Of a stretch of 64,000 nt of DNA, positions 57,146-64,000 are shown one piece after another (position 1 is the first letter of the stretch; each line of letters starts with the position of its first letter). The DNA comes from an uncultured Methylococcaceae bacterium (lineage in GTDB: Bacteria > Pseudomonadota > Gammaproteobacteria > Methylococcales > Methylococcaceae). The notes under the pieces were generated by a model. The model saw nothing but the letters and a program-made list of their open reading frames with translations, was not told the DNA's origin and made no database searches. The DNA lies in NCBI GenBank assembly GCA_903930145.1, contig CAIYXP010000300.1, forward strand, positions 768-64,767, written 5' to 3'. Position numbers and translations under genes: made by a program.

Positions 57146-57928
57146 TTGAATCGATGGCGTCTGCTGGGGTGTTGGTGCGTTTCTGTTGTCGAGGTAAGTT
57201 TGGATAAAATATATTTGTTCGCAATACCCTATGCTGGCGGTTCAGCAGCAGTAATTTATGGGAAGTGGGCCCGCTACCTTCAAAAGCACTTCATAGTCAT
57301 GCCTTTGGAAATGGCCGGGCACGGACGGCGCATGAGCGAACAGTTCCACGAAAACATGGATGAAGTGGTTGCCGACCTGTTCAATATGGTTCGCCCCATA
57401 GCTAAAAATCATCCCTATGTCATTTATGGTCATAGCATGGGTTGCATCATCACTTACGAATTGGTCAAAAAATTACAGATTGCCGGCTATCCTCCGCCGC
57501 AAACCATTTTTCTTTCTGGGCGCAATCCGCCTGATCATGCTTACGCAAGTAACTCACTCCATCTTCTAGCGGATAATATATTTCTACAGGAAATCAGAAA
57601 GATAGGTGGGACACCCGATGAATTCTTCGAAATGAAGAGTCTTGTCGATGCATTTCTCCCGATTATCCGTAGCGATTACCGCATTATCGAGCATTATGTA
57701 TTTTCACCGCCCATTCATGTTATGGACACTGATTTGGTTTTCCTCCATAGCGACCAAGATGTTCTTGTAAGCGAGCCGACAATCCATGAATGGCAGCGTT
57801 ATTGCTCGGGACGTTTTGAAGTAGAGAAGTTTCAAGGGGGTCACTTTTTCATTAATGACTATACTGAGACGATTTGCGAACTGATCGGTAGATCACTCTC
57901 TATTCCCTTATCTAAGACGGTATTATGA
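57146..57928 (+). CDS. Type II (editing) thioesterase
   Basis: LFAIPYAGGSA, GHSMGCIITYE, C-terminal GGHFF. The true start may be the TTG at 57200, 5 nt after the GAGG at 57191-57194. Confidence 0.9.
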   Translation: MNRWRLLGCWCVSVVEVSLDKIYLFAIPYAGGSAAVIYGKWARYLQKHFIVMPLEMAGHGRRMSEQFHENMDEVVADLFNMVRPIAKNHPYVIYGHSMGCIITYELVKKLQIAGYPPPQTIFLSGRNPPDHAYASNSLHLLADNIFLQEIRKIGGTPDEFFEMKSLVDAFLPIIRSDYRIIEHYVFSPPIHVMDTDLVFLHSDQDVLVSEPTIHEWQRYCSGRFEVEKFQGGHFFINDYTETICELIGRSLSIPLSKTVL

Positions 57929-58307
57929 CGATACAAGAAGGAATTATATGCCGGTTTTTCTGTGGGATGTCTAATTTGCCCGGCGGGCGACATTATCATT
58001 GTGCGCTTACATGTCATATCAATTGCGCATAATTAAAATTATGTCAAATTGGGCGACATGGGGGGCGAAATTGGGGGACACGACTCTATCTTTCCGGCCA
58101 TCGAACACTTTCCGACATCAAGACTTGGTAGTTCTCCCAGCCTGTAATTATTTGCCGACGTCGGCACTTGGAGGATTAATCTCCATTGGCAGATCAAACA
58201 TCACCAGACAGGCGGCCAAATCCTTGGGCAGTGCTGTACAGATGGCAAAACGCAGAGCGTGACTGCTTACGATTAGGTCGGTTTTTATTAGCCTATTTGA
58301 ATATCAA

Positions 58308-61300
58308 TCATTGGGCCTTCCACCCCGGCTTGATTTCATCAAGCAGAGTATTGATCTTGTCAACGACATCTTCTGGCACACTTCCCCCTTCGCCGATTTC
58401 AATACTGACTCGAATAAGCAATTTCTGCCCTGCCTTCAGGGTTATCAGCTCGTCAATGCGCTCGGAGAAATCTTGGATTTCATGGGTTTCTAATTCGGCG
58501 GTGGCTATCTTTGTGCCGTATGCCACGGGCTTGATGATTTTGATCCCGGGTGGTTCTTTAGGTACTCGTATCTTCAAGGTACTGGCACCCCCAAGGTCAC
58601 AGGGCCAGGGGGACGAATCTAAAGTCCTCTCTAATAATCCAAGCTGGAAGGCTTCTTCCAGCGCCCGTTTTACGATGACCCATGGAAGCGGTTTGCCTCC
58701 CCCTTTTAACGCAGATAGTGCCGCATGAATAAGGTGCCCTGTGGTCTCACTATCTTTCCAAGCTTGCCCCAAGCTTGCAGGCAACAGATCGGTTGCCGGG
58801 ATTGGGGTTGGCGGTGCTAGGACAATAGCCTGTTCGTTCAAGAACCCACTCGGAACATCCTCCCCCAATACACTGATGGTGCCACTGACTAGCCAAAGTC
58901 GGTTAGTCTTGACTGCCTCGGTCACCGCAGATTTAATCGCTTCTAGCGTTGCAGCCGGAATCAGCAGGTTTTCGGAATATCCGCCTTTGTCCACGGGTTC
59001 AAAGTGTGTCCCGGAGAAATAGGTTTCCAACCGGGCCAATTTCATCGAATCGCCAGACCACAAACCGGGCAGCATTCCCGGCGCAAGCAGTGCAGGATCA
59101 AGATCAACCAGCGTAGCGGCATCGGACAGCAACACTTCCAAGCTCGATTCGGCTAGGGTGTGTTCATCGGGGCGGCATTTCCAGAATGTCCGCACCGATT
59201 TGTCAGAACGGGTTACCCTCAGCACGAAGTCGCCAGATTCGCAGCCTAGCAACAGCGTTTCCAATATGGCATTTCGGTTCAGCATCTTAGGCAACTTTGC
59301 GGTTGCTGCGAAGGAGCCAACCAAGTCTTTGACGAAGCGGGATTTCTCCCCTTCTTCCCAAAGGTCATAGGGTCCACCCGGCAGTAGCGCCTCGGCATTG
59401 ACCGCCGTGCTTTCAATGCGCACCCGCGTGTCGGCTGCGATTTTTGAAAATAAGGGCGTGTTATCGACGGTGATTCGATAGGCTGCCACCTCGTTCTTTT
59501 TGTCAACGGTCACGACAATGCAATAAGCCATCACGATTTGGGACACCATCTCATTACTGGCGACACGCAGACTGGCTTCCAACATGGCGGTGCGGGCGGT
59601 GTCGATATCGTTGCGGTCCTTCAGCATTTCCCTGACTTTTTCCCAACCCAGAAAGTCCCTCACCTTTTCGCGGGCAATGTCCATGGCTTCAAGGGAAGGC
59701 ACGGCCAGCACAACTGCGTTGCGATTATTCGCACGCGGCTTGTCAGGCCCGGTCGTTTCGTCCAAGAACCGCCTTGCTTCGGCACTGGGCTTACCCGCTT
59801 CTGATGCAGCCTTCGGTTTGAGGATCGCGTAATGGAATTCGCCGTCATCCTCGATTTCCGAAGGTTTACTGGGCAGCTTATGCAATTTAATGCCATAACC
59901 GCTGGCACCTTCCCATAGCTTGGCAGCCTTGGCGATTTGGTTTTCCAACACTTCCTCCAGCACCGTCTGGCTGATATGCTGACGGGCATCATGATGCATT
60001 TGCTTGAGGTTGGGCTTCGAGCCTAAACGCCATACCCGAGGCAGACCTGCCTCACGTTCATTGGTGAAGGTGTCGTCGAGATACCAGGATCGATCAGCCC
60101 AGCGCAGCAACCCCTTATCCAACTCGATCTTGTCTGGCGCACCGCCGCCCAGTAACATCAGCATTTCACGGGTTGCCGCCCGTTGCCCAATGGGTTGCGA
60201 ATGCAGGAAGGTGGCAATGACGGCCTGTTCGATTTCCCGGTGTTTCAATCCGCCCAAGTCTTCTTGTGCCTGCCTCGCGTGTTTGAGTTCGGCCTCCAGA
60301 ATGGCCGTCCAGTTTTGTTTCCTGCCCTCGTATTGCTCCAACTGGGCAATCGTCGTCAGTTCACGGGTCGCCACGCTCAGGCCGTCCTCGTTGGCGGCAC
60401 TCAAGAAAACTTGCGTCCCGATGATGGGGGCCGTGTCTTGCCATTGCTCGGCATCGCGCAATGCCGATGCCAAGGTTTTCAGAATGCCGCGAGTTTGCTG
60501 GAAACCTTCCAGCCCAGTCCATTTTCCGTAGAGAACATTCACCAAATCAGGATGGAAGGGATAGGAATCCATAAAGCGTTTTTCCTCCGGGGAGGGATTT
60601 TTGGCGGTTTGACTGTCCACCGCCTTGATGCCATTCAATGTGGCGTAGACCTGCTCCGGCCATTTCGTGCGATCAGTATAGCTTTCCAATTCAAACAACC
60701 GTCGCCGCAGAATTTCCGGCACGTCATGCTGCTCCACTGGTTGGATGCCTTCATCGGCCACCCGCTTGAATTCGTCATACAACTCCCTGCTGATCTTGCG
60801 GCCCAGTTCATCCATCTTCTTGGTGTCGGATGCCAGCAGCGAAGCCACCAGACAACATTGAGGAACTTTCGATACGGCTTGGGTCAGGTGGTGCAAAAAT
60901 ACAGACATTCGCCCCTCCCATGCCTTATCCTGATCGACCATGGTGCGGACGAACATGAGCACTTCGTCAAATAGAATTAATATCGCTGGCACGTCTTGCC
61001 TTGCCAGTTGCAGGACTTCTTCCAAGACATTGGTGGCGGGTGGTTGGGGGCGCTCTTCGCCTGACTCCTTCATCAGCTTCATTGCCGCCGCACCACCCAA
61101 TTGCCACGCCAACACACTCCAAGGCATTTTCAACCGGGCGACATTGCCTAATGGGTCGCGAACCTCCATGCCCATTTCGGCATCCAAGCGGTCAAACACT
61201 ACGGCGGCGATACGCGCCCTCGGCAAGGGGACTTCACAATGCGTCTTGAACTGCTGCACGGCGGGGATTTCAGGCAATGCCTCCGGGTTTTGGCACAGAT

Positions 61301-61595
61301 GGACTAGGGTAATGAGGGAATGGGTCTTGCCTCCGCCGAACGTCATATGCAATTGGCGAACCGCCTTTTCCGATTTCCCCGCCAGCCGCCGCATCACATC
61401 GCGGGCAAGGTCGCGGAGTTTGGTCGTGGGGTAGGTCAGCGCGAAGAAATCCTTCGGGTCGTGGTAGACCGATGGATGCTTGCCCATCATCACATCGTAC
61501 AAATCGGCGGCGAATTGTTTCTGCGACAATTCTTCGTTGCGGATATCCGCCCTGAGGTTAACAACCTTGTGCCAAGGTGAAATCGACTTTGCCAC
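58308..61595 (-). CDS. DUF499-type P-loop ATPase (about 1095 aa), defence-island-associated
   Basis: N-terminus PWHKVVNLRADI...FAADLYDVMMGK...YHDPKDFFALTYPT, then Walker A TFGGGKTHS (plus-strand 61323-61343) and Walker B ILILFDEV. GTG start at 61593-61595, 3 nt downstream of the DUF1156 gene stop. Confidence 0.8.
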   Translation of the reverse strand: MAKSISPWHKVVNLRADIRNEELSQKQFAADLYDVMMGKHPSVYHDPKDFFALTYPTTKLRDLARDVMRRLAGKSEKAVRQLHMTFGGGKTHSLITLVHLCQNPEALPEIPAVQQFKTHCEVPLPRARIAAVVFDRLDAEMGMEVRDPLGNVARLKMPWSVLAWQLGGAAAMKLMKESGEERPQPPATNVLEEVLQLARQDVPAILILFDEVLMFVRTMVDQDKAWEGRMSVFLHHLTQAVSKVPQCCLVASLLASDTKKMDELGRKISRELYDEFKRVADEGIQPVEQHDVPEILRRRLFELESYTDRTKWPEQVYATLNGIKAVDSQTAKNPSPEEKRFMDSYPFHPDLVNVLYGKWTGLEGFQQTRGILKTLASALRDAEQWQDTAPIIGTQVFLSAANEDGLSVATRELTTIAQLEQYEGRKQNWTAILEAELKHARQAQEDLGGLKHREIEQAVIATFLHSQPIGQRAATREMLMLLGGGAPDKIELDKGLLRWADRSWYLDDTFTNEREAGLPRVWRLGSKPNLKQMHHDARQHISQTVLEEVLENQIAKAAKLWEGASGYGIKLHKLPSKPSEIEDDGEFHYAILKPKAASEAGKPSAEARRFLDETTGPDKPRANNRNAVVLAVPSLEAMDIAREKVRDFLGWEKVREMLKDRNDIDTARTAMLEASLRVASNEMVSQIVMAYCIVVTVDKKNEVAAYRITVDNTPLFSKIAADTRVRIESTAVNAEALLPGGPYDLWEEGEKSRFVKDLVGSFAATAKLPKMLNRNAILETLLLGCESGDFVLRVTRSDKSVRTFWKCRPDEHTLAESSLEVLLSDAATLVDLDPALLAPGMLPGLWSGDSMKLARLETYFSGTHFEPVDKGGYSENLLIPAATLEAIKSAVTEAVKTNRLWLVSGTISVLGEDVPSGFLNEQAIVLAPPTPIPATDLLPASLGQAWKDSETTGHLIHAALSALKGGGKPLPWVIVKRALEEAFQLGLLERTLDSSPWPCDLGGASTLKIRVPKEPPGIKIIKPVAYGTKIATAELETHEIQDFSERIDELITLKAGQKLLIRVSIEIGEGGSVPEDVVDKINTLLDEIKPGWKAQ

Positions 61596-61598
61596 GTT

Positions 61599-64000
61599 TT
61601 ATTCTCCTGTTCCGTCAAATGGCAGTGTTTCTTGCGGTCTACCGCCCAAAATTTTTACATGGTTGGATAAGCGTTCCAACGTGGCGCGCTCATTGTCACC
61701 CGCTGGCGCAAGCTCAATGAGAGCCTGTAACAATTGCACGAAGATACGGCTGCGGCGCAAGCCCCTGGCATCAAGGTATTCATTGACGTGGATGACATCG
61801 CCCGCTTGCCAAAGGAGCATGAGTTTGTGAATCTGGTCGATGAGGGGCGAAGGGCGGCCCCCCGCCGAATCCTGACCAAGGTTCTTGTGTTTGCGCTTGA
61901 TCCAAGGATTGAGTTTGAATTGCCCACCGCTGCCAGTCGGTTCGGATGCTTCGTCGTCTTCCTCGTTGGTTTCATCGTCGGCAGTGGACGAGCCGGAACG
62001 GACTAACAACTCGTATTGATCGGTCAACTCGCGCTCGGACAATCCACACGACACCGCATAGAGGATGCATGCGCCCGCTGGGGCATCCTTCATGCCGAAA
62101 TCGTAGCGGTGCAGCAAATAGTAGCTAGTCACATTGTCAAGCGCGTGGTCGATGGTGTCATTGTCCGCCGCGTCCCCGGTCAGCACCCTGCCAACGACAA
62201 AATCCACCACGATGCGCCGCACATGGCGCAAAAACTCATTGACACCCATCAACGCACCCGACTCAGAGGCTTTTCTCACAGCCGGATAACGGCTGTAAGA
62301 CTCCAAGGCCGGGCCAGTCGCCGCCCATACGAAGTCTGGACCATGAATGCCTGCATCCCAAAAGTCACGCAGCTTCTGCACGATATTAGTTTCCATCTCT
62401 TGCAACACTTGAGCATCCCAACCGGCTTTGGTCATCGGATTACGCTTCTTACAGACCATCCAAATGGAGGAGGAAAGCGCGGCTGAACCAAAGGCACGGG
62501 TGCGGTTGCCCATTTCGGTTTGAATCGGCCAACTGGCATCGACGACAAAACCCGCCTTGATGATGGCTGAAACCAAGGTTTCCCAAGCATCCGGGTGTTT
62601 ATGGGCAAACACAACAACCAAGCGTCCATCGGCTTTCAATGCGGAATGACAGGCCACAAAGGCCCGCGCCATGCCTTCTTCATAGTTGCGCTTCGATGCC
62701 TCTTTACTCCCGCCAAACCGTGACGAATCGTCAATCAATTCCCCGTCGTTGGTTTCATGATTCCATTTCGGTGACAGTGGCTCGGAAAAAGCCGCGTCGA
62801 ATTCCGGGGACAATCCATATAAGGTACGTCTTAGCCAGACATAGAAAAAGTCCATTAGATCGGAATAGGGGATGGCATCGTAATAGGGTGGGTCGGTTAT
62901 TACCACATCGAACTCACCATTTAGTGAGTTTGTCGCACTGCAATTCATTATACTTGATGGTGGTGCATTTTTTATTGCCGTGCAAACATGTTGCACAAGA
63001 AGAGCAACCCATTCCAATTGGTTTGGATAACCCCCAGCAGTAACGCTAAGGGGGAATACTTCCGCGAAATCCCAAACTATCGGAAAGGCGTATCTTTGAA
63101 ATGTACCACCAACGGAGTCACGCGAAACGTCAAAATGACAATTTGCACTATTGCGCTCAACTAGACGGTCGAGTGCTGCTGCTAAATAGGTTGAAATAGC
63201 TATTTTCCAGTTATAAGAGTATTTATGGTTCTCCAAATATTTTCTTATTTCCCTTGTAGCCTGTATAAATACAGCAAGGGATAACAACTGCCTTGGCGTA
63301 AATAGTTTATGCCATTGGTCAAAGCCATAGAGTGGCACACGAAAGCCAAGTGCATCGGCACCAGCTAATGGCTCACTCGGCAACCCAAACGGCACATCGG
63401 CAAACACAGGCTCCAATTCGGCTTGTGCAGCTTCCGCCATCTCCAACTCATGGGGGGTGGGCAAACGATATTCCTTGCCACCGGGACTATCCATCACCAC
63501 CGTTGTCATGGTCGAACCGAGTTTCCCGGCTCGGCCTTCCAAGCGAATATCCTCCATGGTCATGATCGTCCCGCAACAGGGACAGCTCGCCCCGGAACGG
63601 CTCATCGTCCCAGCCCCAAGCTTCTTGTCATGCTCGCGCTTGGTCGCGGTATTGCCGGCAACCTGTTTCACGGCTGAGTCTATGCCAAATATCACCCCCC
63701 ACCGTTCAACATCCGGTGTCATCGTCAGTAATACCCGTTTATTGTCCTTCTTGCACAACCAGCGGGTTTTCAGCAGCGGCAACACGGCGCGGCAGGATTT
63801 GCATTTGACGGTACGCGCCCACAAATAGGCTACCGTGGGCTTGGCAATCCAGCGCGGATTTTTGGGGTTTTCCAAGTAATCCTTGGCAAAACCGGCATTA
63901 AGCAATTCGATTTGAGGCTCGCCTAGCTCGTTGAGCGGTACGAGTTTCAACGATCCAGTTTGGAGGGATGTTTCTATGTTCAATATTCCACCCCCACCCT
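61599..64000 (-). CDS. DUF1156-type DNA methyltransferase (N6-A/N4-C class), N-terminus beyond the window edge
   Basis: The reading frame stays open to position 64000. Zn-ribbon-like CxxC...CPCCG. Catalytic motif IV VVITDPPYYDAIPYSDL (DPPY at plus-strand 62883-62894). Large size and pairing with a DUF499 gene. Confidence 0.8.
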   Translation of the reverse strand, partial: GGGGILNIETSLQTGSLKLVPLNELGEPQIELLNAGFAKDYLENPKNPRWIAKPTVAYLWARTVKCKSCRAVLPLLKTRWLCKKDNKRVLLTMTPDVERWGVIFGIDSAVKQVAGNTATKREHDKKLGAGTMSRSGASCPCCGTIMTMEDIRLEGRAGKLGSTMTTVVMDSPGGKEYRLPTPHELEMAEAAQAELEPVFADVPFGLPSEPLAGADALGFRVPLYGFDQWHKLFTPRQLLSLAVFIQATREIRKYLENHKYSYNWKIAISTYLAAALDRLVERNSANCHFDVSRDSVGGTFQRYAFPIVWDFAEVFPLSVTAGGYPNQLEWVALLVQHVCTAIKNAPPSSIMNCSATNSLNGEFDVVITDPPYYDAIPYSDLMDFFYVWLRRTLYGLSPEFDAAFSEPLSPKWNHETNDGELIDDSSRFGGSKEASKRNYEEGMARAFVACHSALKADGRLVVVFAHKHPDAWETLVSAIIKAGFVVDASWPIQTEMGNRTRAFGSAALSSSIWMVCKKRNPMTKAGWDAQVLQEMETNIVQKLRDFWDAGIHGPDFVWAATGPALESYSRYPAVRKASESGALMGVNEFLRHVRRIVVDFVVGRVLTGDAADNDTIDHALDNVTSYYLLHRYDFGMKDAPAGACILYAVSCGLSERELTDQYELLVRSGSSTADDETNEEDDEASEPTGSGGQFKLNPWIKRKHKNLGQDSAGGRPSPLIDQIHKLMLLWQAGDVIHVNEYLDARGLRRSRIFVQLLQALIELAPAGDNERATLERLSNHVKILGGRPQETLPFDGTGE

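Follow-up and report, generated by a model that had tools for sequence, protein, structure and literature searches.

Which system do two long genes at the edge of a biosynthetic cluster belong to, and does their position beside that cluster have a meaning? The question is raised by a stretch of 64,000 nucleotides from an uncultured Methylococcaceae bacterium (the window: positions 768-64767 of contig CAIYXP010000300.1, here contig C300 of genome G000), in which two long minus-strand open reading frames (ORFs) end the sequence. An earlier sequence-only reading described them as a DUF1156 methyltransferase gene and a DUF499 ATPase gene, a poorly characterised pair with a defence-like character, and placed any helicase or nuclease partner, if present at all, beyond position 64000. 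The pair makes up the distal two-thirds of an operon of four genes, hmaA-fic-hmaB-hmaC, which very probably constitutes an Hma system, that is, a Type-1 DUF499-centred BREX-related (BR) system, with an embedded Fic gene. It is a complete-looking new example of a named system and not a new system.

Payne et al. (2021) introduced Hma (helicase, methylase, ATPase) as a candidate and counted 1,638 operons in 26 phyla (PMC8565338); it has since been renamed Type-1 BR in a 2026 study that proposes a mechanism like that of restriction-modification (R-M) systems; there, Type-2 BR adds DUF3780 and an HKD helicase, while Type-3 adds PglZ and iSTAND (PMC12839542). The pair is thus less obscure than first supposed, since it is a fragment of a named and catalogued system, whereas HmaB and HmaC are indeed biochemically uncharacterised and no later literature on the biochemistry of either was found. 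The earlier description of an R-M/BREX-like system of unestablished mechanism also agrees with what has been published (PMC8565338, PMC11232893, PMC12839542).

The operon and its extension beyond the window

Contig C300 ends at position 67897 and adds 3.1 kb past the window. Positions in this part are given as extended coordinates, equal to the C300 position minus 767 or to the L002 coordinate plus 61233 (Table 1). As had been noted, the two minus-strand genes of the window are separated by exactly 3 nt (hmaB stop codon TAA at 61599-61601, hmaC start codon GTG at 61593-61595), and the frame of the upstream one, hmaB, leaves the window; it continues to an ATG at extended position 64943 or a TTG at 64958, which gives a protein of 1114 or 1119 aa, respectively. 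Further upstream, fic and hmaA follow on the same strand, fic starting 8 nt after the hmaA stop and ending 4 nt before the hmaB ATG, so that the gaps along the operon measure 8, 4 and 3 nt. The operon ends after hmaC, convergent with a TEII gene (stop at 57928), an arrangement also recognised before and visible in the ORF layout.

Pfam, PADLOC and NCBIfam profile searches agree on the DUF1156 and DUF499 assignments. HmaB matches its PADLOC model (PDLC00661) with E=3.8e-79 for the part inside the window and E=1.2e-115 for the full protein. The DUF1156 domain itself (Pfam, E=2.1e-17, residues 16-67) is N-terminal and lies outside the window, and a MethyltransfD12 match (E=4e-5, residues 118-187) covers the region of motif I. 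Motif I is found at residue ~138 and the catalytic DPPY motif at residue 689; the ~540 aa between them include the zinc ribbon CKSC...CPCC, whose cysteine pairs are ~70 residues apart. Three of the four cysteines are invariant in all 60 homologues aligned and the fourth is present in 47 of them. The DPPY motif and the zinc ribbon reported previously are thus borne out by translation and conservation, and the profile matches identify HmaB as a predicted DUF1156 N6-adenine DNA methylase.

HmaC is a protein of 1095 aa without an N-terminal HEPN fusion, and both its DUF499 signature, which had been pointed out at first reading, and its Walker motifs are present (Table 1). The P-loop TFGGGKTHS was correctly spotted, apart from a trivial matter of range, in that 61323-61343 covers TFGGGKT and the full motif requires 61317-61343. 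By sequence, neither HmaB nor HmaC has a PDB match at E<=0.01, and Foldseek comparison of their AlphaFold2 (AF2) models with the PDB gave no match at E<=0.001. The best Foldseek matches of the HmaC model (predicted local distance difference test score, pLDDT, of 67 from an 8-sequence alignment; C-terminal residues 1015-1095 of low confidence) were Acinetobacter BrxC (9zll_B and 9zdx_C; E~3e-3, prob 0.94-0.97) and ORC/Cdc6 subunits. These fold matches, though weak, would agree with the published BrxC-like assignment. The HmaB model (mean pLDDT 65, 60-sequence alignment) retrieved only generic S-adenosylmethionine methyltransferases, the weak matches including EcoP15I Mod and further DNA methylases.

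The expected partner beyond position 64000 came to light when the contig was extended: it is HmaA, a helicase-nuclease with SNF2 and NOV_C domains, encoded upstream of the embedded fic gene. Its C-terminal ORF of 472 aa, which runs to the contig end, matches the PADLOC HmaA model (PDLC00659, E=4.6e-17, model positions 715-1148 of 1176) and Pfam NOV_C (E=5e-15; NOV_C/DUF3883, a PD-(D/E)xK nuclease), and the nuclease residues D, ExK and E are conserved here and across relatives. A minus-strand ORF on a second contig of the assembly, C339, encodes an XRE-type helix-turn-helix (HTH) domain, HTH_3 (E=9e-11), followed by the start of the SNF2 core (DPLPHQ). In L012, a contig of a Methylococcaceae metagenome-assembled genome (MAG), both pieces belong to one gene of 1183 aa and are 95-97% identical to it (C339 piece 95%, C-terminus 95.5%); its product comprises HTH_3 (residues 6-54), SNF2/ResIII (SNF2-rel_dom), Helicase_C and NOV_C, and matches PADLOC HmaA with E=7e-160. 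Since L012 holds both pieces in a single gene, the break is an assembly gap of ~1.7 kb, and by DNA comparison 1732 nt of the L012 gene are absent between C339:1 and C300:67897. K-mer overlaps of 21-127 nt from the C300 end or the C339 start to any contig were not found, and the missing helicase core is on no contig of the assembly. Three other assemblies with 100% identical HmaB carry the same four genes. On a 21-kb contig with identical HmaB (ERZ1426745), the junctions again measure 8, 4 and 3 nt; Fic, HmaB and HmaC there have 251, 1114 and 1095 aa, respectively, and HmaA has at least 1154 aa.

The interrupted hmaA might instead be read as decay, leaving a functional methylase and ATPase as an orphan epigenetic module without a restriction arm. 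Such an account would fit the spread of hmaA over two contigs with ~1.73 kb missing, and decay does occur in relatives: in L027 (JGI 3300051400, 595+563 aa) and L030 (JGI 3300025591, 1034+173 aa), hmaA is broken into two ORFs, L027 and L028 each have an IS200-type Y1 transposase between hmaB and hmaC, and the hmaC orthologue of G006:C141 contains one in-frame TAG. It is nevertheless improbable, as both hmaA fragments here are open and 95-97% identical to the intact sister gene, the hmaA ORF on the contig with identical HmaB is no shorter than 1154 aa, every catalytic motif is intact, and an insertion sequence (IS) would not account for the loss of 1.7 kb of unique helicase DNA at both contig ends.

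Taken as a four-gene operon, the locus has HmaA, HmaB and HmaC all on one strand with one embedded gene, where the PADLOC definition of Hma allows three, HmaA being judged from its fragments and the sister gene. The helicase bears the C-terminal PD-(D/E)xK restriction endonuclease (REase) of Type-1 BR systems (NOV_C, with D, ExK and E conserved), and the methylase has the corresponding DUF1156 N-terminal domain, nested insert with a four-cysteine (4C) zinc finger and N6-methyltransferase core. Profile searches of the operon detected neither DUF3780 nor a PLD/HKD domain, and no PglZ, BrxA/B/L or DrmA/B/C. With its helicase-REase fusion and without DUF3780 and PglZ, the operon therefore fits Type-1/Hma.

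The possibility that the module belongs to a better-characterised system, namely BREX, DISARM, Type-2 BR (DUF499/DUF1156/DUF3780/HKD-helicase) or Type IIG/III R-M, is very slight. Weak PADLOC matches link HmaB to PglXI and MTase_II and HmaA-type helicases to BrxHII/DrmD, and the sole NCBIfam matches are DUF499_antiphage and DUF1156_antiphage. However, the latter reach 114 and 110 bits where 1200 and 1000 are required, and the proteins are therefore not members of the Type-2 equivalog group. Moreover, the signature genes of those systems are missing from the operon, the Hma models are by far the best matches, and a NOV_C nuclease on the helicase is what defines Hma/Type-1 BR in the 2026 classification (PMC12839542).

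Side matches to the HmaA model were considered as the missing piece and set aside. Those on C22 and C103 appear by eye to be the N- and C-terminal sequences of one split RapA, and those on C356 and C256 are complete SNF2 proteins of ~940 aa without nuclease. All HmaA proteins of this sub-lineage that were examined (C339, L012, L027, L029 and L031-L034) carry an XRE-type HTH_3 ahead of the SNF2 core; the 2026 classification describes for HmaA an N-terminal TUDOR domain and, in its accessible parts, no HTH (PMC12839542). Upstream of hmaA in L012 (positions 216-319) lies a short repeat of ~100-285 nt, with copies 82-89% identical, which recurs in the present genome (Table 1).

A variable segment within HmaB

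HmaB is mosaic. In comparison with the sister locus L010, HmaC is 97% identical, the part of Fic retained at the L010 contig start (42% of the protein) is 98% identical, and the flanks of HmaB are 90-100% identical, while HmaB residues ~490-840 fall to 25-35% identity, with the DPPY block alone at 69%. Among the 60 best HmaB homologues, residues ~545-685 average 31-39% identity against 80-96% in the flanks; the four nearest homologues reach 17-45% there, and none of the top 60 shares the version found here. In a comparison of nine loci, identity in this segment never leaves the range of 30-45%, whereas it falls in parallel for HmaA, HmaC and the HmaB flanks (97-100% down to 63-71%) and for Fic in the loci that have it (99-100% down to 80%). 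HmaC divergence rises only mildly in its last ~250 residues. In the AF2 model, the segment is mostly helical (pLDDT ~70-92) and ends at the DPPY-bearing strand. It is this part of the insert that varies and not the zinc-ribbon part (residues ~370-520), which is conserved.

This pattern suggests that residues ~545-685 form a putative target-recognition module exchanged as a cassette between operons; that target-recognition domains (TRDs) evolve fast is a general remark of the 2026 study (PMC12839542). Since nothing else co-varies with the module, HmaB probably provides the recognition on which marking and restriction alike depend. A bolder version, in which the ~140-aa helical module would be the sole specificity determinant of the whole Hma/Type-1 BR system, exchanged as a cassette while HmaA and HmaC do not co-vary, is offered tentatively, its chances being somewhat below even. 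If true, a direct handle on the self/non-self mechanism of Hma would come from natural allele pairs, such as the present operon and the sister that is 97% identical to it but has a module of 30% identity. Natural specificity-swap alleles of HmaB could also serve to probe DNA methylation by the DUF1156 methylase and any role of this protein in directing restriction. The module swap is the only lead of some reach at this locus.

A likely mode of action can be drawn, largely from what is known of the family. HmaB would be an alpha-class-like N6-adenine DNA methylase, its Rossmann core interrupted by the insert that carries the zinc ribbon and the hypervariable helical module; by reading a short motif, this module would direct the marking of host DNA. 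HmaC, as a BrxC/ORC-Cdc6-like AAA+ ATPase, would build a surveillance complex on DNA or license one, and HmaA, as an HTH-SNF2 translocase with a C-terminal PD-(D/E)xK nickase, would damage unmarked invader DNA. HmaB would supply the recognition for both arms, as in Type I/III R-M and BREX, because only its module varies between otherwise near-identical operons. Fic would act as an independent passenger.

Part of this scheme has experimental precedent in Halomonas meridiana (Liu et al. 2024), where HmaA nicks supercoiled DNA and protects Escherichia coli from T4 by means of its SNF2 domain and NOV_C nickase, with the nuclease residues D, ExK and E being essential (PMC11232893). Several observations weigh against the scheme or against the completeness of the present operon. 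The same study, the only experimental one, found that HmaA worked alone, that prior growth of T4 on a host expressing HmaB did not let the phage evade it, and that ~15-20% of hmaA loci lack hmaB or hmaC (PMC11232893); methylation or restriction by any HmaB or HmaC has so far not been demonstrated. At this locus, the helicase core is unassembled and a contig break interrupts hmaA, whose intactness rests on sister assemblies, and the AF2 models are moderate (pLDDT 65-67) with no significant fold match. Furthermore, with the PADLOC HmaB model the protein reaches 262 bits, where core members in a class-wide sample of 401 genomes (17 with a match) reach 1300-1700 bits. HmaB here is therefore part of a divergent sub-lineage, which may behave differently.

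The Fic gene and the surroundings of the operon

Fic matches the PADLOC models SoFic (E=1.8e-32) and PDC-S04 (E=2.5e-31) in addition to the Pfam family. When compared with human FICD (E=2.4e-39), its catalytic HPFIDGNGRTSR, an instance of the HxFx(D/E)GNGRxxR motif, aligns, and the inhibitory-helix motif SNRIEGN aligns with TVAIEGN of FICD. The protein is thus a predicted FICD-like class II AMPylase with the autoinhibitory glutamate helix intact. By analogy, it is probably an autoinhibited second-line abortive-infection toxin: Sofic-type Fic proteins reportedly act as abortive-infection AMPylases (PMC12249575), and EF-Tu is given as a SoFic target in a preprint.

The gene occupies the same slot in every sampled locus with HmaB at least 70% identical, over several samples. 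At ~64% HmaB identity, the slot between hmaA and hmaB holds a CD-NTase/Cap15 (CBASS) pair in Sulfurifustis, NYN plus other genes in Accumulibacter and nothing in Thermochromatium. Since these distant clade members carry other cargo or none, Fic is lineage-limited cargo, as expected for Hma, and the idea of a core fourth component was downgraded. That Fic is nevertheless an integral subunit in this Hma sub-lineage, e.g., an effector or regulator licensed by HmaC or HmaA instead of an autonomous passenger, is unlikely. Its constant slot, the short junctions of 4-8 nt and its co-divergence with HmaA and HmaC (99-100% down to 80%) speak for such a role. However, co-divergence is also expected from plain vertical linkage, the slot is empty or filled with CBASS or NYN genes at ~64% HmaB identity, the family matches are to the stand-alone defence candidates SoFic and PDC-S04, and embedded autonomous systems are the rule in Hma. 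Inserted genes are present in ~66% (66.5%) of hma loci (PMC11232893), and Payne et al. 2024 reported embedding in 62.7% of 1,485 Hma systems and exploited it to find new defence genes. In relatives from other phyla, the cargo is SIR2/PDC-S19, HEC-01 or PDC-M28/M48, and this variety in the same slots matches the published embedding hotspot (62.7-66.5% of Hma loci). With lineage-limited cargo as the preferred reading, a weaker addition is that the stably linked Fic may be wired into the Hma system instead of being a free passenger.

HmaB homologues number more than 7,900 proteins at E<=1e-50, and the nearest genomes are Methylococcaceae MAGs. Close HmaC orthologues are present in three of nine other species of the genus, one of the three containing an in-frame TAG, and in none of 15 other genera of the family, a patchy distribution that is usual for defence islands.

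On the downstream side, the sequence-only reading had the module abutting the biosynthetic cluster. The adjacency is real, with 379 nt between hmaC and the convergent TEII gene, but the functional meaning it might suggest does not hold, as identical operons occur elsewhere in other contexts. This locus and L010 have ~290 nt in common after the hmaC stop and diverge near 58022, where the edge of the Hma island is placed by this end of homology; L010 continues into an IS transposase. Downstream of the operon with identical HmaB on the 21-kb contig (ERZ1426745) are LysR, PNPOx, IS21 IstB, PIN/MazE and ParA/ParG genes and no TEII, a plasmid- or island-like set, and two other assemblies (L021 and L022) break 72-99 nt after hmaC. 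The junction is thus variable across assemblies, and the adjacency to the polyketide synthase/nonribosomal peptide synthetase (PKS/NRPS) cluster is therefore incidental. A functional tie to that cluster, through self-protection, regulation or co-mobilisation, is scarcely credible: apart from the proximity to TEII, which is what would recommend it, each of these other contexts speaks against it, and the convergent orientation means no co-transcription. No minus-strand intrinsic terminator was found after hmaC.

The transposase-bearing IS element that follows the shared flank in L010 (7284-8202) has a copy in this genome at G000:C234:1-918, 92.6% identical and at the very start of its contig, and the element is a likely cause of assembly breaks. 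Contig C234 was considered as the true downstream neighbour and rejected, because its match to the L010 flank is the transposase copy and is silent on adjacency.

A second, different DUF499-type locus of the same genome lies on one strand at G000:C356:5976-24221 (L019; Table 1). Its layout resembles the Type-3 BR system of the 2026 classification (PMC12839542).

Table 1. Features of the Hma operon, its flank and other loci of genome G000. Positions are those of the window unless marked as extended or preceded by a contig name.
Feature	Position	Strand	Remarks
hmaC	58308..61595	-	PADLOC HmaC (PDLC00662, residues 4-792) E=1.9e-77; Pfam DUF499 E=2e-19
HmaC Walker A, TFGGGKTHS (residues 85-93)	61317..61343	-	GGGK[TS]H core conserved in 8/8 aligned relatives
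HmaC Walker B, ILILFDEV (residues 205-212)	60960..60983	-	hhhhDE pattern in every relative covering it
hmaB, part in window	61599..64000	-	full gene to extended 64943 (ATG) or 64958 (TTG)
HmaB motif I, DPFAGGG	extended 64527-64547	-	invariant or nearly so among 60 homologues
HmaB catalytic motif IV, DPPY	62883..62894	-	invariant in 60/60 homologues
HmaB four-cysteine zinc ribbon	63573..63803	-	CKSC 63792-63803, CPCC 63573-63584, inside nested insert
HmaB hypervariable segment (residues ~545-685)	62904..63326	-	directly N-terminal to DPPY strand; putative TRD module
fic (251 aa)	extended 64948-65703 (L002 3715-4470)	-	Pfam Fic E=1e-22
hmaA, C-terminal 472 aa	extended 65712-67130 (L002 4479-5897), contig end	-	PADLOC HmaA, Pfam NOV_C
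hmaA, N-terminal 142-144 aa	G000:C339:3-434	-	HTH_3 plus start of SNF2 core
Shared 3' flank of hmaC (~290 nt)	58022..58307	.	homology to sister genome stops near 58022
RapA-like, RNA-polymerase-associated SNF2 protein, by eye split over two contig ends	G000:C22:1-1554, C103:3-1331	-, +	unrelated to Hma operon
Copies of L012 short repeat	G000:C136 and C148 (565-669), C228 (16502-16780)		
L019 gene 1, 935-aa P-loop ATPase			GDRGRGKSH; no Pfam or PADLOC match
L019 gene 2, 317-aa protein			stand-alone PglZ look by eye only; no HMM match
L019 gene 3, 1245-aa DUF1156 methylase			several CxxC pairs
L019 gene 4, embedded HEC-01-type ABC ATPase			E=1.5e-214
L019 gene 5, 941-aa SNF2 helicase without nuclease			HmaA E=5e-99; BrxHI/BrxHII model E=1.5e-97
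L019 genes 6-7, KAP NTPase, then STAND NTPase			

Comparison with known systems

The locus alone matters little, as catalogues list Hma/BR systems for thousands of taxa, usually with embedded passengers, while a correct annotation keeps the pair from passing as an unknown system or as part of the biosynthetic cluster. In common with Hma, it encodes on one strand a NOV_C-bearing SNF2 helicase, a DUF1156 methylase and a DUF499 ATPase (PMC8565338, PMC11232893), it conserves the nuclease residues essential in Halomonas HmaA, and it harbours a foreign defence gene, here between hmaA and hmaB, as do about two-thirds of Hma loci. It departs from core Hma in the size and score of HmaB (1114 aa against ~960-980 aa, and 262 against 1300-1700 bits), in the N-terminal XRE-type HTH_3 of HmaA and in its cargo, which is a Fic gene and not one of the known Septu, PARIS or ABC-ATPase pairs. 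This Fic protein shares the canonical HPFxDGNGRxxR motif and the N-terminal inhibitory helix (S/T)xxxE(G/N) with SoFic/PDC-S04 and FICD-type proteins. However, at 251 aa against ~370 aa, it is much nearer in sequence to the compact FICD-like proteins (E=2e-39) than to the SoFic of Shewanella, which matches with E=6e-5 over 45 residues.

The 2026 classification allows a closer comparison with Type-1 BR systems (PMC12839542). The tripartite core, the helicase-REase fusion and the lack of DUF3780 and PglZ are common to both, as are the DUF1156 N-terminal helical domain of the methylase and its nested insert with one 4C zinc finger. Type-1 ATPases combine a BrxC-like STAND/ORC-Cdc6 AAA+ core with a C-terminal RRM-like domain; HmaC has conserved Walker A and B motifs and, by its weak fold matches, may be BrxC/ORC-like too. 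A single 4C zinc finger, matched by CKSC...CPCC of HmaB, is likewise described there for BR and Type-3 BREX methylases. In contrast with more than half of the Type-1 taxa covered there, HmaC has no HEPN fusion; the N-terminal element detected on the helicase here is an HTH_3, the published one a TUDOR domain; and the variable part of the methylase lies downstream of the conserved zinc-finger module, directly before DPPY. Finally, the ATPase, the nested-TRD methylase and the SNF2 helicase are homologous to BrxC, PglXI/BrxXI and BrxHII of Type-3 BREX, respectively, with which a methylation-based self/non-self logic is presumably shared. Unlike Type-3 BREX, the operon contains no PglZ, BrxA or BrxF, and its presumed effector, a PD-(D/E)xK nuclease, forms one protein with the helicase.

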